Shown piece after piece: positions 1,927 to 22,135 of a DNA stretch of 64,000 nt. A program made the position numbers and the translations under genes. Source of the stretch: an uncultured Mollicutes bacterium (lineage in GTDB: Bacteria; Bacillota_I; Bacilli_A; ML615J-28; CAG-313); the NCBI GenBank assembly GCA_900548675.1, contig URLJ01000005.1, positions 4,412-68,411 of the forward strand. The letters are read 5' to 3'. How positions within the stretch are numbered: position 1 is the first letter of the stretch; every line of letters begins with the position of its first letter. The notes below the pieces were generated by a model. The model saw only the letters and a list, made by a program, of their open reading frames with translations, did no database searches and had not been told where the DNA came from.

Positions 1927-2000
1927 GTATTTAGCATACCGAGTGCAAATAAGCATTATGTGCGATACTACATGGAGGCTGGTGTCAGCCTATTTTTTTT
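1927..2000 (+). ncRNA. Candidate tracrRNA / small RNA (~74 nt) divergent from cas9
   Basis: Predicted start is ~7 nt after the -10 box. It ends in a hairpin (AGGCTG-GTGT-CAGCCT, 1976-1991) followed by ATTTTTTTT (1992-2000). The internal segment AGCATACCGAGTGCAAATAAGCA resembles the anti-repeat/nexus part of the S. pyogenes tracrRNA (AGCATAGCAAGTTAAAATAAGGC). Upstream and opposite-strand placement relative to cas9 is the type II-A arrangement. The CRISPR repeat is not in the window, so the anti-repeat pairing is untested. Confidence 0.4.
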
Positions 2001-2509
2001 AGTCTTTTTTTGATTTTTACCTTTCTAGTTAATACACATTCGAGACTAACATGGAACTGTTTTTGTAAAAACTCTTCATCAAAATCAATAAACTCCGAAG
2101 GTATAAGAATTTGTGCAGCAAATTCATTTGCCTGCCAATCGATATTTTCATATGATTTACATTCATCTACTTCAACAAAATCGAAGTCTAATATCATTGC
2201 TTGAATAAAATGAAATAATTCATGACATAATGTAAAAGCTGATCTATATATGCCTTCTTCGTACTCATTAATAACTGATTCTTTTATATATATAAAATTT
2301 TCTTTTGGGTTATATATCGCAATAGTTGATTTATCGAGCATTTCATCATCGTCATTAATTATTTGATAAGATAAATATCCCTTTTCAAATAAATCATCAA
2401 TTACTTCTAAGACAGGAAAATAACTGTCTTTTTTTATTTCATAATACGCTCTAAATGTTTCAGCAATTTTTTCAATATCACGTACGCTTAAAGGATTAGT
2501 TTTTATCAT
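1985..2509 (-). CDS. ImmA/IrrE-family zinc metallopeptidase (HEXXH)
   Basis: HELFH motif (LCHELFHFIQ), ~170 aa, overlaps the upstream XRE gene by 14 nt; this is the classic ImmR-ImmA arrangement. Confidence 0.7.
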   Translation of the reverse strand: MIKTNPLSVRDIEKIAETFRAYYEIKKDSYFPVLEVIDDLFEKGYLSYQIINDDDEMLDKSTIAIYNPKENFIYIKESVINEYEEGIYRSAFTLCHELFHFIQAMILDFDFVEVDECKSYENIDWQANEFAAQILIPSEFIDFDEEFLQKQFHVSLECVLTRKVKIKKRLKKIG

Positions 2510-2855
2510 TTTCTAGCACTTCCCTTAATTTTTCTATTAGGTCTTTATCTGCGTTTTTTATTTTTCTTGCAAATAACAGTGTTATTTCTTTTTGGCTTTC
2601 GTTCATTTTTGAAAGTTCTAATGAAACTTTTTCATTAGTTTCTTGTATTACTTCTAACAATTCGCTTTTTTCATTTTCAGTTAAATTATATATATCTGAA
2701 ATTTTTTCTGCATAATTAAGAGGTATGTTTTTTCGCCCTACTTCCATGGCAGATAAAAAAGCAGCACTGATATCCATTTTTTTTGCCATATCTCTAAGTG
2801 AGTCATTTTCTTTTTTTCTTATTGTTCTAATATACTGTCCAAATTTACTTAACAT
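2496..2855 (-). CDS. XRE-family HTH transcriptional regulator (ImmR-like)
   Basis: N-terminal HTH (YIRTIRKKENDSLRDMAKKMDISAAFLSAME), 119 aa, translationally coupled to the ImmA-like gene. Confidence 0.75.
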   Translation of the reverse strand: MLSKFGQYIRTIRKKENDSLRDMAKKMDISAAFLSAMEVGRKNIPLNYAEKISDIYNLTENEKSELLEVIQETNEKVSLELSKMNESQKEITLLFARKIKNADKDLIEKLREVLENDKN

Positions 2856-3024
2856 TTAAATCACCATTTTAATTTTACACTATATTAAATTTATTGTCAA
2901 CTATTTTGGTTTACACTTCGCTATATTTTGACAAATATCAACATTTATAACCATTCCCATAAATAAAAAAGTTTTGTAATAAGCATTTTATTACAAAACT
3001 TTTATTTAATATATAAACTATTTT

Positions 3025-5115: not shown

Positions 5116-5687
5116 CTAATCAACCTCCTTCAAATTTATTATACTTTTTTAAATAATGTCTTAAGAGTATCATCTTTTCTTTTCCGATATTCTTTCAGCA
5201 TTTTTTCAAAAAACTACAATTTTTACCTATTATATACATATTATAACATTATTTTTTCTACAACACAAATAAAATTTTTCAAAATAACATATTTTTATAT
5301 AAAAAAACTATGATTATTTCAAAACACATCATAGTCATAATTAATTTTTTCAAAAAAAGTTACTTAGATTATTTAAAAACATTATTTATTGTTGTATATT
5401 GAATATTCCATACATTTTTCGCTTTTTCATCTATATTCGTGTATAATCTAAACTGAAATATTAAATGAACAGTTTAGATAAAAACACGATTTTTTTATTT
5501 ATGATATACTTTTATTGAAGTTATATCAGCTTCATTTAATATTTTATTATACCATATAGTTTTTTTGATTCAATCCAATCATATTCCAATTTACTCTAAG
5601 AACCTTAGAGTTTTTGTTTTTTATCCATTTTTTTAATTACTAAATTAAAAGAGGACACTTAAGTCCTCCATTAGTTTGATATATTAA

Positions 5688-7007: not shown

Positions 7008-7498
7008 AAGATAGTTTCCTCCTCGTCAGTATCATTATATTGTATAACTTATATATATTCAAGATACTATTTGAAATGATACGATTTATATCATTATATA
7101 GTTATTAGCTACATTTCAATTTTATCAAATTGTTTATATTTTTTTAGTATTTTAAATAAGAAATAATGTATTTTCGCAAACACTTTAATAAAAGTTAGTA
7201 TTTTTTCAAAATTATTTTAAATCATTGCGTTGAAGTATTTCAAATTACATTAAACATTAAAAACAGGAACCAGTTTGATTTACTGAATCCTGTTATTTAT
7301 TAAAAATTCTTATTATTTGGTATGATTCATTCTATAATTTGATTTTGCAAATGATATATAAGTTTTTATTGATATTATTAAACTTTAATACTTTATCTTT
7401 TGAATTTGATACTATACTTTTTCAATGATTAATAAAACGAATTACAACATTTTTTCAAATATGTAATTTTCTAATTAGGAAATAATAAATGAAGTTTT

Positions 7499-8098
7499 TT
7501 AGCTAATTTTAGTAAGAAGCGGTAATAAAGCTATTCCGACATCAACGCTTTTATCAAATATCCATTTACCAATATTTTTTAATTTCAACCATTTTTTCTC
7601 TTTTGTATCTTTTGATTCTAAAATCGTCTGGATGAGTTCAATTTGATTTTTTATTTCTTCTTTTTCTGCATCCGTCATTTGTAAACCATCAATTTTATTA
7701 ATAGCCTCTGAATAAATATTTCCATTATTTATAATATTATTATTCCCATAAATATTATAATTGGTCGTACTAGGGATTCTTGTATTTTCTTCAGTTGAAA
7801 AATTATTTTCACATATATCAGTAATATGCATTTCCAATACTTTAAGGTTTTTTAAAAGTATGGACTTGTCGTGAATTAATGGTTCATCGCAGTTCACATA
7901 TGTATACACATTCCTAGTTTCTGATAGTTTAAATGATGCAACAGACTTACCATTTTTAACATTACTCGATCTTTTGGTATAAAATTCTGCTATAGGCATG
8001 TATTCATCACCTATTTTATTAATAATGTTTTGGTCGCTTTCATTTTCTAGTTGTTTGATTAATTTTTGAACTTTTATTAAATTATCATTATGTAACAT
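7499..8098 (-). CDS. Hypothetical protein with C-terminal hydrophobic tail
   Basis: 199-aa ORF. No recognisable motif. Confidence 0.4.
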   Translation of the reverse strand: MLHNDNLIKVQKLIKQLENESDQNIINKIGDEYMPIAEFYTKRSSNVKNGKSVASFKLSETRNVYTYVNCDEPLIHDKSILLKNLKVLEMHITDICENNFSTEENTRIPSTTNYNIYGNNNIINNGNIYSEAINKIDGLQMTDAEKEEIKNQIELIQTILESKDTKEKKWLKLKNIGKWIFDKSVDVGIALLPLLTKIS

Positions 8099-8361
8099 TT
8101 TCTTCTCCTATTAACTTATATATAATCGTGAGTAATTCATTTCATTTTTCAAAATGTACATAAATATTATATCATAAATTAAATATTTTTAACTGAATTA
8201 ATGATTACAATGTTTTAGTTATTTAACTTTGATAATTACGTAACTATTCTTTCTAACTCTTAAGACTATAATCTATATGTTACTAAATTTAATATGACTA
8301 CAGTAATAATATTATTTCACATTGTTAGCATTTTTAAAATTGTTAAGAATTTTTTAAAAAG

Positions 8362-8396
8362 AAAAAGCTGATACTTTTTATTGTATCAGCCTATCT
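8362..8396 (-). terminator. Rho-independent terminator of the helicase operon
   Basis: GCTGATAC/GTATCAGC 8-bp stem followed by a T-run when read on the minus strand, just downstream of the helicase stop. Confidence 0.55.
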
Positions 8397-8688
8397 ACGT
8401 ATCATGTGTAAGATTAGCTATTATGATGCAATTTGCGTACACCCCTTAAAAAGTGCGTACAGTCTGGCAAAATTTATGTACACTTATTTTGCTTATCTTA
8501 ATCTCTACTTTATGCCAAATAGTTCTTTGAGTAGTGTAACGCTCTATTTATGAATTCTTTCCCATATTCAGATAATAAATCGCATAATTTCAAAAATTAA
8601 GCATTCCTCGATTTTTTTGTCTGTCGTTTAGATCAAGTATATAATAATACTTTTTTTCCTTTTCTAAATTTTTATACTCATTATATTG

Positions 8689-11418
8689 TTATTTAGACCC
8701 CAGTAATTTTTTCCTTTGTTTCAAAATATTTGCATCATTATCATAGTTTTGAATTTTAAAAGAAGAAACAATTTTCTCTTCTGTTTCAGGTGTCCAATAA
8801 ATAGTTAAATTCTTTTTAGCTCTTGTAATTGCAGTATAAAATATATTATGCGTAATATTTTCCTCAACCTCATTTGAAATCAATATTTTTACCGAATCAT
8901 ATTCTAATCCTTGAGCTTTGTGAATAGAAAGTGCATAGGCTATTTGAAATGGGATTGACAAATTGTATCCTGTGTCTTTATCGTAAACATCTTCAGAATA
9001 CTTATTAAATGCAAATCTAACTATAGATTCACCATCTACTATTGATAATAATTTAACGTCACAATTTTCACATAATACTGGATTAAGTACTTTATTTATA
9101 CGAATGGTAAATAAAAAACCATTAGAATTTTCTTCTATTTTTTCAATTACACCTTTAAGATTGTTATAAAAAACATCCTTATATTTTAAAGAATCATGAA
9201 AAATTATAGGGTCACCTTCTTTAAAGATATATTGTTTCCATCTATGTACTTCATTTTTATTTGCATTTTGCAAAACTTTATTTAAATTATTGATTCCATA
9301 TAATCCATCATAATTTAAACATAAAATTATTTCATCTCGATAATTTTTCGCAAAAAGACTTTCATCAAATTTATGTGATATTTCAATCATCGCAAGCTTT
9401 TCTTGAATATTAGGTCCTAGATTTCTAACTTCTTTCCAAAAATCTATTAATGTTTCACTATCCGTCCTATACTGTGATTTTAAATCTACAATACATCTTT
9501 TAGGTAAAAATTTTCTTAAAATCGCAAACCAATTACCAAATGTAATTGACTGAATTTGAAATATATCTCCTAACAGAAGCACTAATTTTGGCTTCGTTTG
9601 ATTAAAAATATTAAATGCTTCTTTTGTGCTAATTGTTGAACATTCATCAATTATCAATAAACCAATATTTGAATTTGAATCATATTCTTTTAGATACTTA
9701 GTTGTGGTCATATATTGGGCAGTATTGTCTTCGAACTTTCTCCTCATATTATCTACAGCCGGATTTGTAGATGCAATACAAACCTTAGTTATATCTTTTA
9801 GTACTTTTAATACATAATTTGCAAAATATGATTTCCCTGTTCCTGCCGCACCATATACTGCAAAAACGCTACTATTTTCAAAAAGTGATTTAAGTGCGCA
9901 TTCTTTATCAATATCAATAAAAACTAATCCTAATTCGGATATTCTTGCTTCGCAGTATTCTTTATAGCAAGAGAAATTAATTGCATCAACATAACTATTA
10001 ATATGATTTAAAACATTAATGGTATCCAATTCATTTTCAGCCAAATAAGTATAATTGCCAAATTGAAGAATTCTTCTATGCAAAAGAGATGATTTTTGAA
10101 ACTGCGAATTATACCGCTCAATTGTATCTTTTAAGTTCCCACTACTGATCCTTTCATTTGGAATATAAATACAAGAAGACTCGTTTGAAATGTTAAACAC
10201 TGTTCTAGCCATTATCTCAGTAGCATGTTCTTTATAATCAAACAATTCTATTAAATCCCCAAATGAAGGATTGTGCCCTAATAGGCCAGATGAAAAAGGT
10301 GATTTTTCAAATGCATAAACCCCTCTTTTTAAATTCATATCACTTAAAGAATCTTCCTCATTATAAGAGATTTGTTTTCTTAAAATATCATTGTTCATAG
10401 AATGCAACAAATACAAAAGTGTTTTATATCCTGTTTTCTTACTTTCGATAATTTGTCTAGATTTATCAAGCGTTTTGGATATAATAGTCCTTTTATTTGT
10501 GAAAACAATATTATAAAATTCTTTATAATCCTCATCATTGAATTTAATAATATCTACAAGGTTTAGTTTGTTAGTTTTTAAATAATCCATCAATCTACAA
10601 TAATCGCTAGATTTACTAGAATATGATGTAGAAGCTCCAACAATAAGACTAAGTTTTTCTATTTCACAAGGCCTAATAGCAATTGTAAATCTGGTAATTA
10701 CAACATAAGAAATCATTTGGTCAAAAAAAGTTATTTGTTTTAGAAGGTAATTTGCTTTAATTGCATAATTATCAGGAATATCTAACAATGAAAATGCAAT
10801 AAATCTATCAAATTTGCTATTATTATCAAGTGCATCGGTAAGTACGTATTCATAAAATAGAACATTATCAATATATATCAATTTTTTCTTTTGAATATAA
10901 TATGTTCCTTTTTCCCCTGAATTTTCAAGCATCTCTTTCTTGCTTAAAATTTTAATTATTTCTTTATAATATTTTTGGAATGAATCATCCAAATCGAAAG
11001 GAAATAATGAAAGATTAGTTAACACCTCAATATGATATTTACTATGCAAAAAATCTTTAACTTCAAAAAGTTTAGAAGCATATTTTAAGCCTAATCGCTC
11101 AGCATATTCACCAACAAATATCTGATGTCCAACCGAAGCATTTAAGTTGTCGTAGAATTTAGATAAGAAATTTAAATTGCTATTTGATTTACAATATTTA
11201 TTTGCCGCATCCATTTCTGAATATCTTGCCTCATATGATTTATTTTCATGCGCTTTAGCGACAAAACATTCAACAGAACTAACAAAATCTCTTATTCCTT
11301 CCAACAATGATTCTGTAAGTTTTATTCTATCTTTTAATGAGTTGAAAGTTTTATTAACGCTATTACTATACTTTTCTATCTCTCTTTTCCAATATTCTAA
11401 ATCTCTATGTTCAATCAT
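8689..11418 (-). CDS. RecD/Pif1-like SF1 helicase (AAA_30 plus UvrD_C_2-type) with ~480-aa uncharacterised N-terminal domain
   Basis: Walker A VYGAAGTGKSYF, Walker B LLIIDECSTIS, C-terminal motif ALSIHKAQGLEYDSV...YTAITRAKKNL. The N-terminal half shows no recognisable motifs. Confidence 0.75.
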   Translation of the reverse strand: MIEHRDLEYWKREIEKYSNSVNKTFNSLKDRIKLTESLLEGIRDFVSSVECFVAKAHENKSYEARYSEMDAANKYCKSNSNLNFLSKFYDNLNASVGHQIFVGEYAERLGLKYASKLFEVKDFLHSKYHIEVLTNLSLFPFDLDDSFQKYYKEIIKILSKKEMLENSGEKGTYYIQKKKLIYIDNVLFYEYVLTDALDNNSKFDRFIAFSLLDIPDNYAIKANYLLKQITFFDQMISYVVITRFTIAIRPCEIEKLSLIVGASTSYSSKSSDYCRLMDYLKTNKLNLVDIIKFNDEDYKEFYNIVFTNKRTIISKTLDKSRQIIESKKTGYKTLLYLLHSMNNDILRKQISYNEEDSLSDMNLKRGVYAFEKSPFSSGLLGHNPSFGDLIELFDYKEHATEIMARTVFNISNESSCIYIPNERISSGNLKDTIERYNSQFQKSSLLHRRILQFGNYTYLAENELDTINVLNHINSYVDAINFSCYKEYCEARISELGLVFIDIDKECALKSLFENSSVFAVYGAAGTGKSYFANYVLKVLKDITKVCIASTNPAVDNMRRKFEDNTAQYMTTTKYLKEYDSNSNIGLLIIDECSTISTKEAFNIFNQTKPKLVLLLGDIFQIQSITFGNWFAILRKFLPKRCIVDLKSQYRTDSETLIDFWKEVRNLGPNIQEKLAMIEISHKFDESLFAKNYRDEIILCLNYDGLYGINNLNKVLQNANKNEVHRWKQYIFKEGDPIIFHDSLKYKDVFYNNLKGVIEKIEENSNGFLFTIRINKVLNPVLCENCDVKLLSIVDGESIVRFAFNKYSEDVYDKDTGYNLSIPFQIAYALSIHKAQGLEYDSVKILISNEVEENITHNIFYTAITRAKKNLTIYWTPETEEKIVSSFKIQNYDNDANILKQRKKLLGSK

Positions 11419-11436
11419 AATTATTACCTTTTATCT

Positions 11437-11820
11437 TTAATTGCATAGTGTGATTTGTCTCTTAACATACTTTGAAATCTTTTTTATGAGAATTGTGACT
11501 CTCTTAAACATCATACTTTCTAAAGTTTTCAGCTTGTTCCAACACTTTTTCATATACTTCGGCATTCCATTCTTATAATCAACCTCAGGCTTAGAAGTAA
11601 CAAGGATTACGCATCTTTGGTTGCCAATAACACGTTTGATTTCGACACTTATATATTGAGAAAAATCTCCATTATTAAAACCATTTAATCTAACTCTATC
11701 TATAGCATTTCCTAATTTTAATTCTTTATATTTACCAACAAACTCTGTTACAGGCACCCATCTACTAACTCCTTCGGTATTAGGTTTTACCAATTTTATA
11801 AACAATTCTACCTTAATCAT
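11437..11820 (-). CDS. Small hypothetical protein, upstream partner of the helicase
   Basis: 127-aa ORF, 18 nt upstream of and co-oriented with the helicase gene. Confidence 0.45.
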   Translation of the reverse strand: MIKVELFIKLVKPNTEGVSRWVPVTEFVGKYKELKLGNAIDRVRLNGFNNGDFSQYISVEIKRVIGNQRCVILVTSKPEVDYKNGMPKYMKKCWNKLKTLESMMFKRVTILIKKISKYVKRQITLCN

Positions 11821-12336
11821 TTTTATTAACCATCCTATAAATAAGTTAAAAACATACGAAAATTATAACACTTTTTTGAGAAAATTACAAGTAGATTGCG
11901 GAATAATGACAGAACTAAAAAAAGTTTTTATAAAAAATATAGTTTGTTCCGTAGGAATATATAAAAAGAAAAAGAGCCTCGTAAAAATGCCGTTTTGCAC
12001 TTCTACAAGGCTCTATAGTTTGTTGGCGGAAAGGATAAAGGTTCCTATCCACAAAGAAAAAAGGCTTGATAACAAATGTATCAAACCTATTGCTTCTTTA
12101 ATGTGAAAGGTAAGTTTTGTTAATACAATGCACCCTCTATAGATGAAGGTGCACCCTCTAACCCTATATTTTTAAGCATATACACAAGTGACGTGTGACT
12201 AGCGTGACAGATGTGACACTTAGGTATGATATGCATATTTTATACAACAAAAGTATTTGAAAAACAAGTTTAATACAACTTGACTTTAAACCTCTTTAGA
12301 GTGATAGATAGACACAGCTTTAAGGAGGTTTTTATT

Positions 12337-12516
12337 ATGCGTCATAAACAAATTGAAGGCGAAATAAAATATAGATTTGCATGTCTTCTTCTAAATCAAA
12401 TGCTTAAAGATAAATTTATAACAAAAGATGAACTTATATTATTTAAGAAAAAGCTCATTAAAAAATATAAACCTATAATTAGTGTGTTGGAGGAAATCGA
12501 TGAAAAAGATAATTAA
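12337..12516 (+). CDS. Small hypothetical protein preceding the recombinase remnant
   Basis: AAGGAGG RBS before ATG (MRHKQIEGEIKY...). About 60 aa. Confidence 0.4.
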   Translation: MRHKQIEGEIKYRFACLLLNQMLKDKFITKDELILFKKKLIKKYKPIISVLEEIDEKDN

Positions 12517-13945
12517 AGAAATTACTCCAATAAAGAAAAAGGTTGAAAATGCACCTACTAAAAAGTGAGTCGCAGCATATGCAAGAGTATCAACTGAACA
12601 AGATGAGCAGCTTCATTCTTTACAGGTTCAAAGAGATTATTATGAAAATTATATTAAATCTAATCCTGACTGGGAACTCGTTAATATTTATTATGATGAA
12701 GGAATTACAGGTACTTCTTTAAAACGTAGAAAATGATTTAATCAAATGATAACAGATGCTCTTGATGGGAAAATAGATGTTATATTAGTTAAGTCAGTAT
12801 CTAGATTCGCTAGAAATACAATTGATGCTCTTCAAACAACAAGAGATTTAAAATTAAAAGGCGTACCTGTATTTTTTGAAAAAGAAAACATTGATAGTAT
12901 GGATCCTAAAGGTGAATTCATGCTTACACTATTCTGTTCTTTCGCTCAGGAAGAATCCAAATCAATATCTGATAACATTAAATAGTCAGTTAGAAATGGA
13001 TATAAACATGGGAAATTCACAATGCATACTGAGCATTTATTAGGTTTTAAGAAAACAGCAGCAGGTAAAATTATAATTGATAAGGAACAGGCAAAACTTG
13101 TTAAAATGATTTATAAACTTTTCTTAGAAGGTTTAAATAATCATCAATTACAAGTATACCTAAAAAACAATAATATCTTAACACCTCTAGGTTCTAAAAA
13201 ATGGACTTATGCAGTCATTAATTCAATTCTTACTAATGAAAAATATTGTGGAGATGCAATACTTCAAAAGAAATTCTCAATTGATGTAGTACTTCATACT
13301 TTAAAAAAGAATGAAGGTGAATTACCTCAATATAGAATATATAATAATCATCCTGCAATTATACCAAAGCCAACATGGGAATATGTTCAAGAATTATATT
13401 CAATTAAATATAATGATAACTCATATCCACTAAGTAATAAAATTGAATGTGGATTATGTCATAAATTTTATCAGCCTAGAAGAAATGATAGAAAAAAGGA
13501 TTATGGCAAAGTTCTTCTATATTGGGTTTGCAATTCAAGATACAAAAGAAAATGTAAGGGAATACTTATTCATGATGAACAAATGATTGAAGCATCTACT
13601 TTAGCATTTGAAAATTTATATAGTTCTTATAAAGATGAAATTATAAATGATATAAGATTAATTGCATCTAAAACAATAACCACTAAAACCAAACAAAAAG
13701 AATTTAGTAACAAGTTATCTTCTATCTATCCCTTAAATAAGGATATTATAGATTACTTTACTAAATTCTTAATTAGAAAAATATATGTTGTTGATGATGA
13801 CTATCTTCTTTATGAATTTATTGACGATACCTTATATCGTTATGAACTAGGTACATGGTCTATAAAAGAAAACAGAAAGATTAATCGTAAACGCAGAGAG
13901 TTTAGAAATAAAGACTATTGGGGAAAGAAACCTGAAGTAGATTAA
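12503..13945 (+). pseudogene. Large serine recombinase (resolvase/invertase N-domain plus recombinase domain), disrupted by at least 3 stops/frameshifts
   Basis: Frames give MKKIIKEITPIKKK...TKK*, VAAYARVSTEQDEQLHSLQVQRDYYENYI...GITGTSLKRRK*, ...IDVILVKSVSRFARNTIDALQTTRDLKLKGVPVFFEKENIDS...*, then the 307-aa ORF 13022-13945 (recombinase/zinc-ribbon-like: CGLCHKFYQP...C). The serine-recombinase catalytic region (AYARVS) is split across frames. Confidence 0.7.
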
Positions 13946-14253
13946 TCCTCAATAATTTCATAAGCAACTCTAGAGCCTTTTACTCTTACTGCATGGAATC
14001 TTCTATTATTTGCTTTCCAATGAGGAAACTTATCAGCTTTTTCTTCATTAGTATCACGATAGCAAATTATAATATTATCTAAAACATCAGCTCCACCTTT
14101 TGATAATGGTCTAATGTGATCTAATGTAGGATGATAATTACTATTAGGATTTCCACAAGCAGATTTTTTCATTAATCTACCAGCATAGTCCTTTACATCT
14201 TCTTTTTTGCCATAATAATGATTCCAGACATCGATTGTATTGTACTTTGACAT
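13942..14253 (-). CDS. Small HNH endonuclease-family protein, partner of the viperin-like gene
   Basis: HNH motif YHPTLDHIRPLSKGGADVLDNIIICYRDTNEEKADKF. Likely start MSKYNT at 14253 with AGGAGG 7 nt upstream; the ORF track extends to 14313. Confidence 0.65.
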   Translation of the reverse strand: MSKYNTIDVWNHYYGKKEDVKDYAGRLMKKSACGNPNSNYHPTLDHIRPLSKGGADVLDNIIICYRDTNEEKADKFPHWKANNRRFHAVRVKGSRVAYEIIED

Positions 14254-14278
14254 TTTGAATACCTCCTTTCTAAAGTGA

Positions 14279-15103
14279 TTAAATGTATCTTTTAATATAA
14301 TTGGCATAATCAATATTTAATAGATTAATTGCTTCTTCTATATCATAATCAAATATTGAAATATTGCTTATATGGGCATTATTTGTTGAAATATTACCTT
14401 GTGAGTCAATAATTATATATGAGTTTTTCATCTCATCAGAACTTTCAAATATATGGTCAAATTTGATTTTTGATAAGAAGGCTTCTGCTTCTTCTTTATT
14501 AACCATATTATTTTTATTTTTTAGGTCATTATCATCACAATGCATCTGAAGAATTTTATATCTATCTGGTTTAATTTCATTTATAAACGAATTAAAATCC
14601 TCATCAATATTTAACTTAGAAAGGCAAGTATTAATTTTTAATTTAATACCTGCTTTTTTAATGCTATTACAGATGTGAATTAATTGTTCTTTAGATAAAG
14701 TATTAGCTTTAAAACATCTTCCAATTAAAACATTTGTATCATAATCTAAAGAATCTACACTAATTCCAATTGTACTTATTTGATTTTTGTATCTTTCAAT
14801 AAATGAATCATCCAAATAATAACCATTAGTAATAATAGATACTTCAATACCTTTTGATGCAATATAATCGATTAATCTATCAATATTTCTAGACATTAAG
14901 GGCTCCCCTCCTGCGAGATTGATTCTGCCCTTAATTTCATTATCGTTAAAATATTTATAAATTTTATCTACTGCAACCTTTAGTTCATCAAATGACAACT
15001 CACAATTTTCTTTTTTAACAAAGCAATGCTTACAATGAAAATTACAGAAATCTGTAAAATGAAGATTTATACAAGAATACATTTCCATCACCTCGGGCTT
15101 CAT
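14279..15103 (-). CDS. Prokaryotic viperin (pVip)-like radical SAM enzyme
   Basis: CNFHCKHC (CxxxCxxC) inside NLHFTDFCNFHCKHCF (compare viperin NYHFTRQCNYKCGFCF). GGEP SAM motif, NVLIGR, KINTCLSKLN, RYKILQMH. The C-terminal MKNSYIIID matches the viperin-specific tail (MKDSYLILD). Confidence 0.7.
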   Translation of the reverse strand: MKPEVMEMYSCINLHFTDFCNFHCKHCFVKKENCELSFDELKVAVDKIYKYFNDNEIKGRINLAGGEPLMSRNIDRLIDYIASKGIEVSIITNGYYLDDSFIERYKNQISTIGISVDSLDYDTNVLIGRCFKANTLSKEQLIHICNSIKKAGIKLKINTCLSKLNIDEDFNSFINEIKPDRYKILQMHCDDNDLKNKNNMVNKEEAEAFLSKIKFDHIFESSDEMKNSYIIIDSQGNISTNNAHISNISIFDYDIEEAINLLNIDYANYIKRYI

Positions 15104-15187
15104 TATATATTAATAAATAAATTAATATCGGGCCTTCAGGCGAAAATAAAAACATCAGCTAAATTAATAACTGATGCTTCAATCACT

Positions 15188-15391
15188 CTATTTCGTTAGA
15201 GTATTATGTAAAATTTGTAAATTAAGGAAATTATCAGCTTTTGGTATATATCCTGAACGCCATTTGTAGATTGTTTTTTCATTAACATCTAGTAGAATTG
15301 ACATTTCATAATAAGAATACTTAACTGTTAAATCTCCTATTAATCCGATTACAATTTTACGAATTTCTTCCTTTGATATTAAATCAAACAT
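15188..15391 (-). CDS. Small HTH DNA-binding protein
   Basis: 67 aa; EKTIYKWRSG HTH-like segment. Sits between the viperin and nucleotidyltransferase modules. Confidence 0.4.
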   Translation of the reverse strand: MFDLISKEEIRKIVIGLIGDLTVKYSYYEMSILLDVNEKTIYKWRSGYIPKADNFLNLQILHNTLTK

Positions 15392-15471
15392 TGTAACAAC
15401 CTCCTCTGGTCAAACCAGGGCGGTCAACAATCAGAAAATTGTTACAGGTATATTATATCATCTTTTTTAAA

Positions 15472-16137
15472 TCATTGGAATCTTATACCAAAATGTTTTA
15501 ATGTTTCAACGACTGATTCATTTAACAATTGATAGGATTTCTTCTTATTTGGTTCAACATCATCTTTATGATCATGACGTTTCTTTTTATATACTTTTCG
15601 AAGATACTCCCACATTTCAGGGCCTTCAATAAGACTTAATCTTTCACGATATTTATTCATTTCTTTTCTTTTAGCCCATTCATAGTCTTCGTTATTAGCA
15701 TTATTAGTATTTTTCTTATTATAAAGAATATAGAAATTACCGTCTTCATCATATGTTGTTATAATGATATCAAAGCCATATCCTTTGTTAATATTTTTTG
15801 TAGTTAAGGCTTGAGTGCTATCCTCACAGAAACTGAATCCTTTAGGTTTAAACTTATCAAATGTAGTTCTAAATATATCTTTAAATTTTTTACAGTCTCT
15901 ATTCCAATTATAATTATTCGGAATAGATTGCATAACAATTTGGAAATCTAAATCAAAGAAATTCTCATTGCATTTTCTAATTACCATATTTCTACTACCA
16001 CTACCAATTGGAGAGTGTGAAAAAGTAATTTTATAATTCTTTTTTATATATTTTTGAACACTATTAATCCAATTAATAAATGTATCTCTTGGAATCTCTA
16101 GTTCCTTTTTCTTTACATAATCACACATAAAAATCAA
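15472..16137 (-). CDS. Pol-beta-superfamily nucleotidyltransferase (minimal nucleotidyltransferase / SMODS-like)
   Basis: HSPIGSGSRNMVIRKCNENFFDLDFQIV (GS...DxD) plus a downstream acidic GFDIIITTYDEDG. Overlaps the upstream HEPN gene by 4 nt. Confidence 0.55.
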   Translation of the reverse strand: MIFMCDYVKKKELEIPRDTFINWINSVQKYIKKNYKITFSHSPIGSGSRNMVIRKCNENFFDLDFQIVMQSIPNNYNWNRDCKKFKDIFRTTFDKFKPKGFSFCEDSTQALTTKNINKGYGFDIIITTYDEDGNFYILYNKKNTNNANNEDYEWAKRKEMNKYRERLSLIEGPEMWEYLRKVYKKKRHDHKDDVEPNKKKSYQLLNESVVETLKHFGIRFQ

Positions 16138-16820
16138 TCCTCCGTATATAGCAAGAACTTATAATAAGCACTTGCTATATTTTCTTTTGTCTTTTGATTA
16201 GGTACTTTAAGATTTTTGATACACCCATCTTTATAATCAGATGGCAGCATTTCAACTAAAGCACCTATTCCTTTTAGTGTTTCTTCAACCGTCGATTCAA
16301 AATTATAATCAAATAATAAAGGTGAGTGATGCATTACACTATTTCTTAGATTTATTGTTAAATCTAATTTGCTAGTATCATAAGTTTGTGAATCATAATC
16401 TTTTATAAAAGACACTAAATCTCCAAAGTTTAAAGCAAACTTTTTATAAAAGTCTGTTATTTCATCCGTTGGATTAGTCTTTCTAATACACTTTGGCAGT
16501 CCTTTAAAATAATGATATTCTGGTTTCTTTAATTCAGCTTCAGGATCGAAATCAAATCTTAGTAAAATATCATTTCTGATATATTCTTCCAAAGTACCTA
16601 AATATTTAAATAGAACATCTTTTATTGCCTTATCGAGGATAACAAATGAATTGACATCAGCAAAAATAACATTAGAATCAACCTTACTCAATGCTTCAAA
16701 TATAATTCTATATTGCTGAACACCTCGAATTTTAGAATACTTCTCAAATGTGCTTTTATCATCATTATTAAGTTTTTCAATAAATTCTTTAAATCCCATA
16801 TTCTTCCTCCGTTTTAGCAA
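16134..16820 (-). CDS. Abi2 (AbiD/AbiF-like) HEPN-domain protein
   Basis: R-x4-H HEPN motif in LRNSVMHHSPLL. ~228 aa, typical of the Abi_2 family. Translationally coupled to the nucleotidyltransferase gene. Confidence 0.5.
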   Translation of the reverse strand: MLKRRKNMGFKEFIEKLNNDDKSTFEKYSKIRGVQQYRIIFEALSKVDSNVIFADVNSFVILDKAIKDVLFKYLGTLEEYIRNDILLRFDFDPEAELKKPEYHYFKGLPKCIRKTNPTDEITDFYKKFALNFGDLVSFIKDYDSQTYDTSKLDLTINLRNSVMHHSPLLFDYNFESTVEETLKGIGALVEMLPSDYKDGCIKNLKVPNQKTKENIASAYYKFLLYTED

Positions 16821-16873
16821 TTAAATATCTCAGGTTATTTAAATACTATAATTTTGCCATTTTTCACACGTTT

Positions 16874-17749
16874 TTAGTCTTCATCAGAAATACTAGAATA
16901 ATCAATTTTTTTAATACTTCCATCTTTATTGAAGTGATAGAACAATTTATCATCGATCTTTAAAACTGCTTTTGTGTCAGATTTTATAATACTTGTTGAA
17001 GAATGAGGTTCAGTTTTGATTGCGCCATAAGAAACACCTTCAATTCTATCGAGTTCTAATTTTGTAATAAAACTTTTAAAAACATCATACTCATTGTTTA
17101 CGTATTTTCTTTTTCCGGTTACAAATGGACCTTTGTAATTAATTAAATCCTCAATTACTTTTCCATAATTATCAAATAATTCATAATAACCCAACACATA
17201 TTCTGGTCTTAAAATATTGCCTCTATCATCATTGGTAAAGCCATCAATACAATCAGCTTTAACATTTCCTTTTAAATATACTCCTTTTATTTTAATATTT
17301 GGTCTTATGGATGACTCTGTGATTGTAATTTTAAATGTTTTATTAGATACATCACATAAATCTAATGGAGCAATATCATAATAAATTAATATCTTTACTG
17401 CTCCACTTTGAAATCCTAAATTTGAAGCAAAACAGGGAATAATTTTCCAATCATTATGTTTTTCTTTAATATCTCTTATAACAGTAACAAATGAGCATGC
17501 TTCTGTTTTTTCAACAGGACCATTATGTGATTTACACTCACACAACAAATGGTAATCAGGATTGTTTGAAGATAAAAGATGAATATCTATTTGATGTTTT
17601 GCTCCTGATATACCTTCTATTTTATCAGTGTGGTCATCTGAAACCTTATCGAATATTATTCCCCTATCCCAGCTTATTTCTTTCAACAGTAAAATACTTT
17701 CAGAAAAATCTTCATATTTTTTTCCTTTTTCTTGATTTTTAGTCGGCAT
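16874..17749 (-). CDS. Mrr-like PD-(D/E)xK restriction-endonuclease-fold protein with unknown C-terminal domain
   Basis: N-terminal region GISGAKHQIDIHLL...LLCECKSH fits the Mrr_cat D...ExK catalytic core. Confidence 0.5.
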   Translation of the reverse strand: MPTKNQEKGKKYEDFSESILLLKEISWDRGIIFDKVSDDHTDKIEGISGAKHQIDIHLLSSNNPDYHLLCECKSHNGPVEKTEACSFVTVIRDIKEKHNDWKIIPCFASNLGFQSGAVKILIYYDIAPLDLCDVSNKTFKITITESSIRPNIKIKGVYLKGNVKADCIDGFTNDDRGNILRPEYVLGYYELFDNYGKVIEDLINYKGPFVTGKRKYVNNEYDVFKSFITKLELDRIEGVSYGAIKTEPHSSTSIIKSDTKAVLKIDDKLFYHFNKDGSIKKIDYSSISDED

Positions 17750-17795: not shown

Positions 17796-18335
17796 TTATT
17801 TCAAATCCATTGTTATAACAACATCTTCATCACCAAGTAAATCTATTAATTCACTTTTGGATAAATTGATATGTCCTAATTTTGTATAAGACCATGTATT
17901 AGAGTCATAGAATAATACTATTTGATTTGATGAGTATAAAACTATATCTCCTGGAGATGTAGTTAAACTAGCATCACTTGATGCAATACATTTACCAAGT
18001 GAACCTACCTGTTCAAAGTTACCATACATACTCATATTTATAGTTAGTCCATCTTTAGCAAGTTCTTTTAAAGCTTTAACTGAATCATTATCCAGCCAAT
18101 TAACATCTACTATAGTATTACCAATTTTTAGTTCAATTGCCTTATTCGCATATGGGGCTTCTTCTTTTGGTTCAATAGTTGTAGGATTTGAATCAGTTGA
18201 TGAACATGTAGTAAATGAAGGTGTTGTTGGAGTATCAGGCAGTGTTGTAACTTTGTTGTTAGAGCAAGAGGAAGTAATTAAAATTAGAATGATAAAAAGA
18301 AATAGTAATGGTGTTTTTCTAATATTGATTCTCAT
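17796..18335 (-). CDS. Lipoprotein (cyclophilin-like fold family)
   Basis: Signal peptide with lipobox-like LITSSC. Overlaps the upstream ORF by 4 nt. Confidence 0.5.
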   Translation of the reverse strand: MRINIRKTPLLFLFIILILITSSCSNNKVTTLPDTPTTPSFTTCSSTDSNPTTIEPKEEAPYANKAIELKIGNTIVDVNWLDNDSVKALKELAKDGLTINMSMYGNFEQVGSLGKCIASSDASLTTSPGDIVLYSSNQIVLFYDSNTWSYTKLGHINLSKSELIDLLGDEDVVITMDLK

Positions 18336-18799
18336 AATAAATCTTTTTGCTCATCTATCCAACTCAGCCATTTTATAACAGTACTTGCTCTTCTTTTGCA
18401 TACCTCATAATTATCTATTTTATAGAGAATACTTATCATTTGAGATATTTCATCAATTGTTGGATTTGAATTATAATAATAACGCATGAAAAACACTTCG
18501 CCAAAAACAGGCATTGATACAATTAGTTGAGATAGTTTTAAAACCCTTGTATCATTTGAAACACTTTTAAGTTCTTTTGCGACCTCTGTGAACTGTCTTT
18601 TTAATATTAAACCTAAAAATTCACATGCGCTCAAATAATAAGATATTTGTCTATCGGTTCCTAAACTGAGCAACTCTTTAAGGTAGTCGTTGTCTTTTAA
18701 TTTATCCTCATTAACTTCTAATAATTTGATGATCTTTTCAAAATCATTTGCTTGTGGAAATGGAACACTATTTCTTTCTTCCATAAATAAGCACCTCAT
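18332..18799 (-). CDS. Hypothetical protein, translationally coupled to the Dam methyltransferase
   Basis: 155-aa ORF. Overlaps the methyltransferase 3' end by 32 nt. Confidence 0.4.
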   Translation of the reverse strand: MRCLFMEERNSVPFPQANDFEKIIKLLEVNEDKLKDNDYLKELLSLGTDRQISYYLSACEFLGLILKRQFTEVAKELKSVSNDTRVLKLSQLIVSMPVFGEVFFMRYYYNSNPTIDEISQMISILYKIDNYEVCKRRASTVIKWLSWIDEQKDLL

Positions 18800-19616
18800 C
18801 TACTTTTTTTCTCTCTTTCTTACTATTAATGTTTCTATTTGCTTTTATAGTTTTAGTAGAATATACTATTTCATAATTATCAGATTCATTAAATAATTCT
18901 CTAACAAACTTAGTATCATTATTTGATATTAAAACAAAGCAACCCTTTGATATTAATCTATCACACGTTTTTTTCAAGCGGATTAAATCATCATGAGTAA
19001 AGCCTTCTTTAACATAATTAACAAAACCGGAAATTTCATAATCATATGGTGGGTCAAAATATACCCAATCTCCAGTTTTAGCAGTCTTTGTAGTTTCAAC
19101 AAAATCTTCTGATAATATTTTTATCTTATTTGTGTTCAAATAATTAGAGATTTCTATTAAATTGTTTTCATCACATATTAAAGGATTAACATATCTTCCA
19201 ATAGGAGTATTAAAATAACCATTTTTATTTACTCTGTATAAACCATTATAGCAAGTTCTATTTAGATAAATTGTTCTAGCTGCTTTTTCTACATCTGTCA
19301 TTGATCCATATAAGTATGGATCTCTGTCTAAGCTTCTAATATAATAGTAATAATCTTTGCAATGTCTACTTGCATGCTCTTTTAGCTTGGTAATTAAATC
19401 GTTGACATTATCTTTTATAACCATATATGCGTTGATGATTTCCGAATTTAAATCATTTATTATGCAATAATTATGTTTTAATTCAAAAAATACTGAGCCT
19501 CCACCTAAAAACGGTTCAAAATACCTATTATCACCAATTTTATCATTGGTTACAAATTCTTTGATATATGGTATCAACTGTCTTTTACCACCGGCCCATT
19601 TTAAAAATGGTTTCAT
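18768..19616 (-). CDS. Dam-family (D12 class) N6-adenine DNA methyltransferase
   Basis: KWAGGKRQL N-terminal motif and DPPY catalytic motif. Confidence 0.85.
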   Translation of the reverse strand: MKPFLKWAGGKRQLIPYIKEFVTNDKIGDNRYFEPFLGGGSVFFELKHNYCIINDLNSEIINAYMVIKDNVNDLITKLKEHASRHCKDYYYYIRSLDRDPYLYGSMTDVEKAARTIYLNRTCYNGLYRVNKNGYFNTPIGRYVNPLICDENNLIEISNYLNTNKIKILSEDFVETTKTAKTGDWVYFDPPYDYEISGFVNYVKEGFTHDDLIRLKKTCDRLISKGCFVLISNNDTKFVRELFNESDNYEIVYSTKTIKANRNINSKKERKKVDEVLIYGRKK

Positions 19617-19627
19617 ACGCTCACTCC

Positions 19628-22135
19628 TTATTCGAATTCCATTTCATCATTTCCACCAAAAATGAAATTGCCCTTTCTTATAGATTTTTCCATAAGTTCC
19701 TCTTTTTTCTTTAACGCTTTATAGATATCATAATCTTTGGATTTTTTCATTTCATCATCATAATAATTCAAATATATATAATAATTTGTTTTATCTGAAT
19801 CTTTTAGGCCAAGTCTATGAATTCTATCTCTAGATTGAAGGTATTGGTATAAGTTATAATTTAATTCAAGATAATGTGCATCATGGCACGCTTTATGTAA
19901 AGATACAGATTCCGCTAATGTTGCAGGATTTGTTACCAAAATTTGCAATGTACCATAGTTAAACTCATCTATTATTTTTTCTCTTTCAGATTGTTCTGTA
20001 TCTCCATAAATCGTTTTTACATAATATCCTTTATCTTTTAAAACCTTATAGATCACATTGATCGTGTCTACGAAGTTGCACCACACGATTGACTTTCTAT
20101 TGTTTTTTTCCAATATAGACAAAAACTTACATATCTTACTGGTATAATAAATTTCTCCATCTATATCTGTATTTTTTTCATTAAATTCAATACTTTGATT
20201 ACATTTAAATGGAACACAACCTATTTCTACTAATTTAATTGTGCTTTCAAACGAATTCATCTTTTTTGAAATAATTTGATTATATAGTTCTCTTTCATAA
20301 CTGTTTGTTTGAACTTGAATTAAATTATCATGTTCTGGGAGAGGTACGTTCAAATCTTTTTTATCTACTCTCACAAAATATGGATATAAAATATGGTTTA
20401 AATCAGAGTTCTGTAATCCAGTCTTTCTATATCTTGAATCATCAGATTTCAAAGTTGATTCAAACATTTGAAAATATGATTGTGCATAATCATCATGTAA
20501 TAGAGACATCATATTAAATAGATCTATATAGCCGTTTGGCAACGGGGTACCTGTCAACGCCATTCGATATCTAGTTTTATAAGCTATTTCTTTAAGACAT
20601 GCATATTTCAAACTGTCTATTTTTTTTATTCTATGAATCTCATCAAAAACAATCATTGTCTTTGAATCAACCAACTTTAGTAGTTCATTTTTCACTTTTG
20701 TAATAAGCTCATAATTCACTATAATAAGCCTTGATGTAGAGTAGTCGTGTAGCAACACATCGCTTTTTTCACTAATGCTATCGTTATTAATTAAACATAA
20801 TGGTGCATGATTATCGGACTCAAACGAAACCGCATTATATTCATCTTTCCAAGACTTAGCACAATTGACTGGACCAATAACAAGCAATTTATCTACATAA
20901 TTTTGATTTAGACTGCATTCATTAGCCAAATATTCAAATGCCCCAAGAACTGTTGCGGTTTTTCCACTTCCAGGAACAGAAAAGTTAAGTGATTTTTCCA
21001 TCTTTACCAAATGGATTGCTGACTGTATCTGACTATCTTTAAGCGGACGTTTAATTAAAGAATTAATACCAGCTTTCAATGATGCAAAATCAGAAGTTGA
21101 CGTATAATCAGTTTTCTTTATTTCAGTTCCTTTTACGGATAATTCATCATAATTTCTATAATGCAAATCAAAATAATCTTTTGCTTTCTTTGTTAAGTAG
21201 AAAGAAATACTATTGTTGTTACATAGTTTTTCAATTTTAAGCTTAAAATCCATCAATTCAGTTATACGTTTGATGTTTTTAAGTTTAAAGCATTTTTCTT
21301 CTTTACTTAAAAAATTAGAGGTTGAAAACTCACCAATATTTTTATAATTAAGCAAAGGTATCATATCGATGTTTGATGTTAAAATTACTTCTCCAAATTC
21401 ATTAAAATCAAATCTGATATAGTTAGGATTTTTAATGTATTGTTTAATTTCTTCATAATCAATTTTTTCTATCATTTTGGTAATAATAGGGTCTGGTAAA
21501 TCAACAGTTATAACATCATCCTTCTCATTATTCCAAATATTATCAAACAGATTATTGAGCTCATTTATGCTGTTTAATTCTCTTTTGCTTGGATTATCCC
21601 AGTCGATAGTAACTTGAAAAGCCTCATCATTAATTCCTGCCGCTGCTTCTGTGAAATTAGGCGAACCAATGTAAACTAGATTATGTATTCCATCTGATAT
21701 AATTCCAAACTTATCATGAACAATACCCGAAATTTTATATACCAATTTTACATCTAACTTTCCAACCGCAATTAAATAAGAAAATAAGTTAACATCATCT
21801 TGCTCACAAAGCTCGTTAATTCTTTCAACAATAATTGTTTTAGATAGTGCTGTTGTTAAAGAACTTTTTTCAGAATACCCTTTATTAATTTGCTTAATTG
21901 TTTCAGAATCTATATCTTCTGACAAAATAAGTTGCATATACCCGTCATTTTTTATAAATTCAGATATTCCTTTTTTTAGATACTTAAAAATTCCAACCGA
22001 AAAATAAGCTGTAATTCTCTTATATAGATTGGCATTCAACAATGCTTTTGAATAAAAGTCTTCAACATCTTTCTGGTTAAAATAAATAGTATTAAAATTA
22101 ATTTTTGACAAATCTTTATTCATTTTCGTTTTCAA
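19628..22135 (-). CDS. PLD-family (HKD) nuclease fused to an SF2 (SNF2/ResIII-like) helicase
   Basis: HKD motif HDKFGIISDGIHNLVYIGSPNFTEAA. Walker A NFSVPGSGKTAT, DExH MIVFDEIHRIK, a C-terminal helicase domain with QSRDRIHRLG. Confidence 0.8.
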   Translation of the reverse strand: MKTKMNKDLSKINFNTIYFNQKDVEDFYSKALLNANLYKRITAYFSVGIFKYLKKGISEFIKNDGYMQLILSEDIDSETIKQINKGYSEKSSLTTALSKTIIVERINELCEQDDVNLFSYLIAVGKLDVKLVYKISGIVHDKFGIISDGIHNLVYIGSPNFTEAAAGINDEAFQVTIDWDNPSKRELNSINELNNLFDNIWNNEKDDVITVDLPDPIITKMIEKIDYEEIKQYIKNPNYIRFDFNEFGEVILTSNIDMIPLLNYKNIGEFSTSNFLSKEEKCFKLKNIKRITELMDFKLKIEKLCNNNSISFYLTKKAKDYFDLHYRNYDELSVKGTEIKKTDYTSTSDFASLKAGINSLIKRPLKDSQIQSAIHLVKMEKSLNFSVPGSGKTATVLGAFEYLANECSLNQNYVDKLLVIGPVNCAKSWKDEYNAVSFESDNHAPLCLINNDSISEKSDVLLHDYSTSRLIIVNYELITKVKNELLKLVDSKTMIVFDEIHRIKKIDSLKYACLKEIAYKTRYRMALTGTPLPNGYIDLFNMMSLLHDDYAQSYFQMFESTLKSDDSRYRKTGLQNSDLNHILYPYFVRVDKKDLNVPLPEHDNLIQVQTNSYERELYNQIISKKMNSFESTIKLVEIGCVPFKCNQSIEFNEKNTDIDGEIYYTSKICKFLSILEKNNRKSIVWCNFVDTINVIYKVLKDKGYYVKTIYGDTEQSEREKIIDEFNYGTLQILVTNPATLAESVSLHKACHDAHYLELNYNLYQYLQSRDRIHRLGLKDSDKTNYYIYLNYYDDEMKKSKDYDIYKALKKKEELMEKSIRKGNFIFGGNDEMEFE

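Follow-up and report, generated by a model that had tools for sequence, protein, structure and literature searches.

A predicted kinase-less prokaryotic viperin with a small helix-turn-helix gene, a conserved cis element and an optional HNH gene in an uncultured Mollicutes bacterium

Viperins are among the few immune enzymes that are common to bacteria, archaea and animals, and the helper genes known for them so far are nucleotide kinases. Can a nuclease take the place of the kinase? This question is raised by a locus in a 64,000-nucleotide stretch of DNA from an uncultured Mollicutes bacterium (GenBank assembly GCA_900548675.1, contig URLJ01000005.1, positions 4,412 to 68,411; referred to here as the window), in which an earlier note, made from the letters alone, had recognised a prokaryotic viperin (pVip) coupled to a small HNH protein instead of a nucleotide kinase. 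Our analysis places the locus in the kinase-less class of pVips, with a regulator gene, a conserved cis element and an optional HNH gene, and the description "HNH instead of kinase" is overstated. The HNH gene is rather likely to be a selected, probably co-transcribed add-on and a border gene, and not the defining partner of the viperin.

The three genes in question lie on the minus strand, with open reading frames (ORFs) at 15391..15188 (67-aa helix-turn-helix, HTH), 15103..14279 (radical-SAM) and 14253..13942 (HNH). In the direction of transcription, the locus contains the following features.

15188..15391, minus strand: 67-aa XRE-like HTH protein (HTH67), putative regulator of the pVip (ORF; weak Pfam HTH_23 match; alignment A6)
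15149..15180, minus strand: intrinsic-terminator-like hairpin with T-run, after the 67-aa gene; the sole terminator-like site in 13700-17100
15127..15143, minus strand: 17-nt motif TCGCCTGAAGGCCCGAT (consensus TCRCYTRAAGNNCCGAT), putative operator or promoter element, possibly an anti-Shine-Dalgarno
15102..15107, minus strand: -10-like TATAAT, putative pVip-HNH promoter, 19 nt downstream of the 17-nt motif
14279..15082, minus strand: pVip, 267 aa; the ORF reaches 15103 (274 aa); ribosome-binding site (RBS) GAGGTGA at 15094..15088
13942..14253, minus strand: 103-aa stand-alone HNH nuclease-like protein (Cas9/McrA-type HNN); RBS AGGAGG at 14267..14262

Viperin identity and the kinase question

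Several observations assign the radical-SAM protein to the viperins. First, its ORF contains NLHFTDFCNFHCKHCF, GGEP, NVLIGR, KINTCLSKLN and the C-terminal MKNSYIIID, all of which line up with mouse viperin (5vsl) and a viperin-like enzyme (7n7h), as expected from the motifs that the earlier note had read, C-terminal tail included. The CxxxCxxC motif (as CNFHCKHC) and GGEP are both present in the pVip, and alignment A7 shows no variation at the three cysteines or at G-G-E. Second, the protein scored 228.6 bits against the NCBIfam model NF038283 (viperin_w_prok; cut-off 180) and 227 bits against its best PADLOC match, PDLC02903, the model for pVips not associated with kinases; with family scores this far over the curated thresholds, the motif set is not a product of chance. 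Third, the top nine matches in a search of PDB sequences were all viperins or viperin-like enzymes (E 1e-24 to 5e-20), in alignments that run from residue 11 to about 262-272 and span GGEP, NxLIGR, KIN and the C-terminal NSYxIxD region; 7n7h, 5vsl and 6q2p matched over residues 11-272 at E 1e-24 to 5e-24.

The scores of the protein against less specific models are much lower. It reached 74.5 bits against Pfam Radical_SAM (PF04055) and 77.6 bits against MoaA (TIGR02666), the latter under the cut-off of 284, and MoaA aligned with it over the N-terminal radical-SAM core alone (residues 12-178, E 6e-10). The proposal that this is a viperin and not a generic radical-SAM protein is thus borne out by a passed family threshold, a full-length match to solved viperins and a MoaA match that is weak and confined to the core; neither the family scores nor the PDB-sequence alignments group the protein with MoaA. 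By these comparisons, the protein of 267 aa is a true prokaryotic viperin of the kinase-less class. Its true start is likely ATG 15082 (M8 of the ORF), because GAGGTGA at 15094..15088 precedes this codon and the homologues are 264-268 aa long. As in the rest of its family, the [4Fe-4S]/SAM enzyme would turn a nucleoside triphosphate (NTP) into its 3'-deoxy-3',4'-didehydro form (ddhNTP), and this product would terminate phage RNA synthesis.

The premise that pVips are usually found with nucleotide kinases, on which the unusual nature of an HNH partner had been argued, is wrong. Shomar et al. (bioRxiv 10.1101/2023.09.13.557418) report a kinase within three genes of just 12% of bacterial viperins, so a kinase-less pVip is the normal case; the pVip subtypes named in the literature are those with a kinase, those without a kinase and an archaeal type tied to a TPR-domain protein. 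No nucleotide kinase was detected with Pfam, NCBIfam and PADLOC among the annotated flanking genes of the window pVip, nor fused to it. Its neighbours are the HNH gene, the 67-aa HTH gene, a CD-NTase-like gene, a HEPN-like gene, a gene for a 291-aa protein that matches no family and a recombinase pseudogene.

Compared to other kinase-less ("solo") pVips (Bernheim et al. 2021; PDLC02903, NF038283), the window protein shows the same CxxxCxxC core, GGEP and C-terminal extension specific to viperins, and its scores exceed the curated thresholds. Its gene is located in a defence island and, like most bacterial pVip genes, has no kinase gene close by. What sets its clade apart is the link to the 67-aa HTH gene, to a terminator and to the conserved 17-nt motif, as well as a 103-aa HNH gene that is often, not always, present and would be co-transcribed. 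Compared to vertebrate viperin RSAD2 with CMPK2 and to pVip-kinase operons or fusions, the locus shares the enzyme family and the idea of a linked helper gene, whereas the genes linked to this pVip encode a putative regulator and a nuclease-like protein and not a substrate supplier, with no kinase among the flanks. Full-text literature searches found no description of an association of pVips with HNH genes or with HEPN/nucleotidyltransferase pairs.

The upstream HTH gene and the cis elements

Which gene, then, is the most constant companion of the pVip? Eight non-redundant pVip contexts were compared, composed of homologues picked blind to their neighbours and of loci found via the HNH gene. 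This is a small sample, as is that of about 12 HNH contexts discussed below. Percentages are pVip identities to the window protein, and related loci are given by number.

Window, L014-16: pVip 94-100%; upstream HEPN-like, NTase-like and 67-aa HTH genes; HNH downstream
L020: pVip 79%; upstream NTase-like and HEPN-like genes (divergent, order swapped) and 67-aa HTH gene; HNH downstream
L051: pVip 78%; upstream HEPN-like, NTase-like and 67-aa HTH genes; HNH downstream
L023: pVip 72%; upstream HEPN-like, NTase-like and 67-aa HTH genes; no HNH
L024: pVip 63%; upstream HEPN-like, NTase-like and 65-aa HTH genes; no HNH
L039: pVip 59%; upstream genes for an HTH_3 protein (253 aa) and a 121-aa protein; HNH downstream after a 16-nt gap
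L027: pVip 57%; upstream SLFN-type helicase, MazG-like protein and 67-aa HTH genes; no HNH
L032: pVip 53%; upstream gene for an RNase III-like protein (762 aa); no HNH

The small HTH gene that the earlier note had seen just upstream of the pVip is present, with a product of 67 aa, and its importance had been under-weighted. It stands directly upstream of the pVip in six of the eight contexts, and no other partner is linked as consistently to the pVip across this sample. Its identity drops in step with that of the pVip (83/79, 73/72, 60/63 and 47/57% for the HTH and the pVip, respectively). The protein scored 16.9 bits against Pfam HTH_23, which is under the cut-off, and shows a conserved XRE-like helix-turn-helix pattern in alignment A6. 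At the most divergent of these loci (L027), a DpnD-PcfM/MazG-like gene (5013-5516), NTP pyrophosphatase-like and another neighbour from nucleotide metabolism, immediately precedes the 67-aa HTH gene and the pVip.

The intergenic region between the HTH gene and the pVip is conserved in its organisation. A hairpin with a T-run occurs at the same place in L015, L051, L020, L023, L024 and L027, with stem sequences that differ from one another. The 17-nt motif that follows is nearly invariant across loci with pVips just 57% identical; it was found exactly once, and always between both genes, in all 19 fetched loci with the 67-aa gene and the pVip, and in none of the fetched pVip loci that lack the 67-aa gene. 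In seven of seven aligned loci, TATAAT or TAAAAT lies 18-19 nt past the CCGAT of the motif and is followed by GAGGTGA and the start codon. Consensus promoter scans ran at chance level in this AT-rich DNA, and the promoter assignment is one that we infer. An Rfam search of the locus gave chance-level matches only, with no family for the hairpin and motif region. The 5' part of the motif (UCGCCU) is also complementary to the pVip Shine-Dalgarno sequence AGGUGA, so that the two could pair.

Since the 67-aa gene ends in a conserved terminator and is followed by the 17-nt motif and a -10-like box, the pVip and the HNH gene most likely form a separately regulated two-gene transcript. The terminator scan of 13700-17100 found no terminator between pVip and HNH, and co-transcription of the two is therefore likely. 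HTH67 probably binds the 17-nt motif as the operator of the pVip(-HNH) promoter. With its dedicated small HTH regulator and its conserved cis element, the window clade of pVips offers a tractable case for the study of how viperin expression is controlled in bacteria.

The HNH gene and its link to the viperin

The gene of about 100 codons that had been reported 25 nt behind the viperin stop, with its own RBS, is present as described. It starts at ATG 14253, which is 25 nt past the pVip stop and 8 nt past AGGAGG (14267..14262), and encodes 103 aa; a mechanical ORF call had begun at TTG 14313, and all HNH homologues begin with MSK and are about 103 aa long. The protein scored 26.4 bits against Pfam HNH (cut-off 21.4) and 26.0 bits against HNH_4 (cut-off 22). 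Curated models and a PDB profile search otherwise returned just weak matches to generic Cas9, IscB and McrA HNH domains (PDB E at least 0.002). H46, N60 and N69 are invariant in the family and D45 is nearly so (at least 90%), and all four residues are found in the window copy.

The family is widespread. At 90% identity, it divides into 553 clusters, of which more than 120 are 70-85% identical to the window protein; almost all are 103 aa long. A profile search of 1.84 billion representatives gave 646 matches, of which only 13 had E of 1e-30 or less; a genome scan with the single HNH protein yielded five loci, and a plasmid collection contained one distant match, which lies in a Mycoplasmopsis chromosome filed as a plasmid. 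With dN/dS (nonsynonymous to synonymous change) at 0.04-0.2 and synonymous change saturated, the HNH gene is, as judged from its codons, functional and subject to purifying selection. HNH and pVip have comparable dS values (1.03 and 1.27, respectively) when the window is compared to L051. The low dN/dS and the similar dS together indicate a functional gene that has travelled with the pVip in the crown clade.

Individual copies deviate from this picture. At position 65, where at least 90% of the family have H, the window copy alone has Y (codon at 14059-14061), and L014-16 have H; in the nearly identical L016 copy, the TGG codon of W79 has become TGA (L016 7235-7237). These two changes may be individual decay events or sequencing errors of the metagenome-assembled genomes (MAGs). 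An AlphaFold model of the HNH protein reached a pLDDT of 55, too poor for placing H65.

Is the HNH gene the defining partner of the viperin? It stands behind the pVip in four of the eight contexts (pVip identities of 59-100%) and is missing from the other four (72, 63, 57 and 53%). It also occurs in the following contexts without a pVip, given with HNH identity to the window protein.

L007, L013, L017: HNH 77-79%; upstream AAA_15/AAA_21 ATPase matching AriA, PtuA and AbiLi models
L008, L045: HNH 77-78%; upstream DUF4238 protein and small HTH gene
L035: HNH 68%; upstream DUF4238 homologue (397 aa)
L001: HNH 79%; upstream 450-aa protein without known family and HTH_3 gene
L018: HNH 62%; between an ABC-F gene and a MatE gene
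L064 (Mycoplasmopsis cynos): HNH 51%; upstream nicotinamide mononucleotide transporter gene

An obligate two-gene system of pVip and HNH is not what these loci present: half of the pVip contexts have the HNH gene, and about two-thirds of the HNH contexts have other genes upstream. Pairwise comparisons are more telling. L007 and L008 encode an identical HNH protein, and the cargo between HNH and the integrases is wholly different. On one side of the cargo, the two share 97.5% DNA identity from 16 nt ahead of the HNH ATG through a 55-aa ORF, SAM synthetase, ArdA, DUF4314 and a C5 methylase; on the other side, they are 95% identical in two tyrosine integrases. Similarly, the window and L001 share HNH and a downstream HTH_3/Peptidase_M78 pair, and the cargo upstream of HNH is unrelated. 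Because these two pairs of loci keep the HNH gene beside different cargo, it behaves, as far as such alignments can tell, as a conserved gene bordering a cargo hotspot in two element backbones. As the same HNH family borders many defence cargoes and is the conserved gene where cargo swaps, the adjacency of pVip and HNH mainly reflects linkage at the hotspot.

Such an arrangement has parallels. As in the defence hotspots of P2/P4 elements (Rousset et al. 2022, PMC9122126), a constant gene borders swapped and unrelated defence systems, and nuclease genes are likewise reported at genetic-exchange boundaries in phages (bioRxiv 10.1101/2023.03.23.533998), comparable to the constant gene beside swapped defence cargo seen here. 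The elements compared in this work are, unlike P2/P4 or lytic phages, islands in the chromosome and integrase-bearing elements, both from uncultured low-GC bacteria of the gut and rumen, and unlike in the P2/P4 hotspots, the border gene is itself a nuclease-like gene.

Four observations nevertheless weigh against reading the adjacency as hotspot linkage. First, a pVip lies upstream in about one-third of the HNH contexts sampled blind (two of six look-ups plus one genome-scan context), which is far more than chance would give for two rare genes. Second, the gap between pVip and HNH is 16-25 nt, versus 76-113 nt in other HNH contexts. Third, the HNH sequences partly cluster by their upstream gene. 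Fourth, HTH67-pVip-HNH moves as a block in the crown clade, and the adjoining HEPN/NTase genes are swapped (L020 versus L051). Blind adjacency, spacing, clustering and joint inheritance would fit a functional pVip-HNH unit equally well.

In such a unit, a genuine two-gene defence system, ddhNTPs would poison phage transcription, and the HNH protein, made from a co-transcribed gene, would be a second effector without which protection is incomplete; it might, for example, degrade phage DNA that is stalled or unprotected. The recurrence of the pair in four pVip lineages (59-100% identity) with short gaps and no terminator between, the purifying selection on HNH with a dS similar to that of pVip, the inheritance of HTH67-pVip-HNH as one block while its neighbours swap, and the grouping of the crown-clade pVip-linked HNHs with one another all speak for this proposal. 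It is contradicted by the four pVip lineages that lack HNH, by the identical HNH protein beside different cargo in L007 and L008, and by the pVip-linked HNH of L039, which branches outside the other pVip-linked HNHs. The window copy carries its H65Y change at a nearly invariant position, that of L016 is interrupted at W79, and the HNH protein has no recognisable sensor or nucleotide-binding domain. Furthermore, the pVips characterised experimentally so far reportedly act as single genes. We regard a two-gene system as possible but rather unlikely. The unusual pairing highlighted in the earlier note thus stands in part: it is recurrent, tightly spaced and under purifying selection in several pVip lineages, but kinase-less pVips are the majority class, and HNH is missing from close pVip relatives and sits behind quite different genes, housekeeping genes among them. 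Likewise, the alternative that HNH is a widespread, independent gene that does not co-occur with pVips is right about its spread and independence and wrong about co-occurrence.

In a broader version, the HNH family would be a swappable accessory nuclease recruited by pVips, AAA_15 ATPases and DUF4238 proteins as a co-transcribed second effector, which we consider unlikely. If true, HTH67-pVip-HNH would be an undescribed regulated viperin variant that joins chain termination with DNA cleavage. The closest known arrangement is Septu (PtuA ATPase and PtuB HNH), which resembles L007, L013 and L017 in that HNH lies directly behind an AAA_15/AAA_21 ATPase. Unlike Septu, the window HNH has no adjacent ATPase and no PADLOC PtuB match, with just weak matches to Cas9-type HNH domains; PtuB is about twice the size of the 103-aa HNH protein. 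The ATPases are 594-602 aa long, with 481 aa in L017, where the contig starts inside the gene (coordinates 4116-5924 in L007, 4170-5954 in L013 and 35-1480 in L017). Over approximately their last 65 residues, they are similar (E 4e-5) to the small HTH_3 proteins encoded ahead of HNH elsewhere.

The boundaries of DNA homology bear on a further explanation, by which the HNH protein would be a selfish or semi-selfish homing-type endonuclease at exchange boundaries that, through nicks or cuts near its own locus and the recombination that these set off, moves the adjacent cargo, in this case the pVip cassette, between elements. Between the window and other loci, homology is confined to the HNH ORF and just about 17 nt upstream; in general, inter-locus homology sets in about 16-19 nt ahead of the ATG and ends with the stop codon. 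Otherwise homologous loci differ in the presence of HNH, cargo is swapped directly beside it, the protein is small and stand-alone with no partner domain, and phages provide a precedent in the nuclease genes reported at genetic-exchange boundaries (bioRxiv 10.1101/2023.03.23.533998). However, the family was absent from 50,697 phage genomes, and IMG/VR scans gave one true member (the same scans gave no pVip of the window clade). The strong conservation of the gene is more typical of one that benefits its host, no target site, intron or intein context was found, and distant members stand in stable housekeeping contexts. This analogy with homing endonucleases is therefore improbable as an account of the locus.

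We thus retain the reading of HNH as a selected add-on and border gene. If HNH turned out to be needed, the locus would represent a new viperin partnership; if it were not needed, the gene would be a clear case of a conserved gene at the border of a hotspot for defence cargo, and would caution against inferring function from adjacency in defence islands.

Other features of the HNH loci concern its small neighbours and remote relatives. A profile comparison of HTH67 with the small HTH genes upstream of HNH elsewhere showed generic HTH similarity only (probability 50%), too little for claiming an ancestral HTH-HNH unit. Acidic ORFs of 55-64 aa lie 10-91 nt downstream of HNH in L007 (6323-6490), L013 (6370-6564), L017 (1893-2072) and L051 (6404-6577). 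They were rejected as a conserved immunity gene, being not homologous to one another save for the L013/L017 pair, and the window has none. Many of the remoter HNH relatives are proteins of 290-440 aa that carry the module N-terminally, in some cases twice, ahead of about 200 residues that match no Pfam or PADLOC family; in P0334, P0351, P0367, P0369 and P0376, the tandem duplicates sometimes include one degenerate copy.

The HEPN/NTase pair and the surrounding island

Beyond the viperin, its regulator and the HNH gene, the following features of the window are relevant to the origin of the locus.

16134..16799, minus strand: HEPN/Abi_2-like protein, 221 aa from MGFKEF; ORF from TTG 16820 (228 aa); identified by Abi_2 and Rx4H
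15472..16128, minus strand: compact CD-NTase-like nucleotidyltransferase (NTase), 218 aa from the conserved MCDY; ORF (221 aa) to 16137; identified by fold and catalytic residues
12482..13945, plus strand: large serine recombinase pseudogene (Pfam Recombinase, Zn_ribbon_recom), convergent with HNH
1985..2855, minus strand: ImmR/ImmA-like pair of HTH_3 (119 aa) and Peptidase_M78 (174 aa) proteins (Pfam; blastn/tblastn synteny with L001 6502-7384)

The HEPN-like ORF overlaps the start of the NTase ORF (TTG 16137) by 4 nt. Its product scored 25.6 bits against Pfam Abi_2, exactly at the cut-off, and its invariant R159-N160-x-V-M-H164-H165 fits the HEPN Rx4H motif. The NTase has no Pfam or NCBIfam match, and its sole curated match is the PADLOC cyclase model PDLC00787, with 23 bits. 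Its AlphaFold model reached a pLDDT of 89, however, and all of the top 50 Foldseek matches in the PDB are CD-NTases or cGAS, the best being DwCdnB (E 4e-8, TMq 0.65); G45-S46, D62-L63-D64 and D123 are invariant.

The pair adjoins HTH67-pVip in five of the eight pVip contexts. It also stands without a pVip in L057-63, beside a helicase and a Fic gene, and is therefore treated as a separate two-gene module that is often found beside pVip. On its modelled fold and motifs, it could be a minimal CBASS-like or HEPN-NTase module. Compared to type I CBASS and to HEPN-MNT toxin-antitoxin systems, the pair has an NTase with the CD-NTase-like fold and the catalytic triad, whose gene is overlapped by one for a HEPN (Rx4H) protein. 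Unlike in type I CBASS, the NTase is about 218 aa long with 23 bits on the cyclase model, and the HEPN/Abi_2-like protein has no known cyclic-nucleotide sensor domain; unlike in HEPN-MNT systems, the NTase is closer to CD-NTases than to minimal MNT antitoxins. The NTase allele is 68% identical to that of the window in L014 (708-1361) and L015 (5117-5770) and 97% identical in L016, in cassettes that are otherwise 92-98% identical, which suggests, from the alignments, the replacement of the allele of a single gene.

It is conceivable that all five genes (HEPN/Abi_2-like, CD-NTase-like, HTH67, pVip and HNH) form one system linked by a nucleotide signal or a modified nucleotide. This would agree with the frequent position of the pair beside HTH67-pVip, once as a very divergent pair in reverse order, with the CD-NTase fold and intact catalytic triad of the NTase, and with the recovery of the whole 4.7-kb block at 92-96% DNA identity in three MAGs. 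The modules do occur singly, however: the HEPN/NTase pair without pVip in L057-63, pVip without the pair in L027, L032 and L039, and HNH with none of the others. The HTH67 gene and pVip are parted by a terminator, and neither nuclease has a known signal-sensing domain. A five-gene system is accordingly very improbable. What the locus adds is a clade of pVips in uncultured low-GC bacteria of the gut and rumen, with a putative HTH regulator and a cis element, an optional HNH gene and a frequently adjoining CD-NTase-like/HEPN pair.

The 4.7-kb block, which consists of the HEPN-like, NTase-like, HTH67, pVip, HNH and recombinase genes, is shared with L014, L015 and L016. Related genome records are all uncultured MAGs, labelled Acholeplasmatales, Bacilli or Cloacimonadota, and the MAGs of L014, L015 and L016 carry the labels Cloacimonadota, Bacilli and Acholeplasmatales, respectively, despite the common block. 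Either recent horizontal transfer or a binning artefact would explain this distribution. The recombinase of the window is interrupted by in-frame nonsense codons at 12566 (TGA), 12734 (TGA) and 12983 (TAG), with no frameshift, and the copy in L015 is intact (487 aa). The recombinase stop codon overlaps the HNH stop codon on the opposite strand.

The window is bacterial chromosome, with genes for UvrA, phosphofructokinase, pyruvate kinase and an ABC transporter past about 26 kb. Its GC content is about 27%, and TGA serves as a stop codon; genetic code 4 (TGA as tryptophan) was dismissed, as 5 of the 34 long ORFs end in TGA. The first approximately 26 kb form a defence island with PDC-S53, an IceA-like gene, a Dam methylase with DUF7226 and an SNF2/PLD helicase, and the ImmR/ImmA-like pair, among others. 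About 11 kb (2856-13941) part HNH from the ImmR/ImmA-like pair, and in L001 the homologous pair follows about 190 nt after HNH. This interval holds genes for a GNAT-YoaP protein, a 275-aa HNH protein, a 439-aa HTH_19 protein and a 909-aa PDC-S53 candidate defence protein (909 bits), as well as an IceA-like fragment and the recombinase pseudogene. Farther along, the minus-strand run at 18332-25842 encodes DUF7226, a Dam-type N6-adenine methylase, an 835-aa SNF2/PLD helicase, a 430-aa protein that matches no Pfam family and an 815-aa protein with a sigma-70 region-4-like HTH, and it is probably a further multi-gene defence or restriction-like system.

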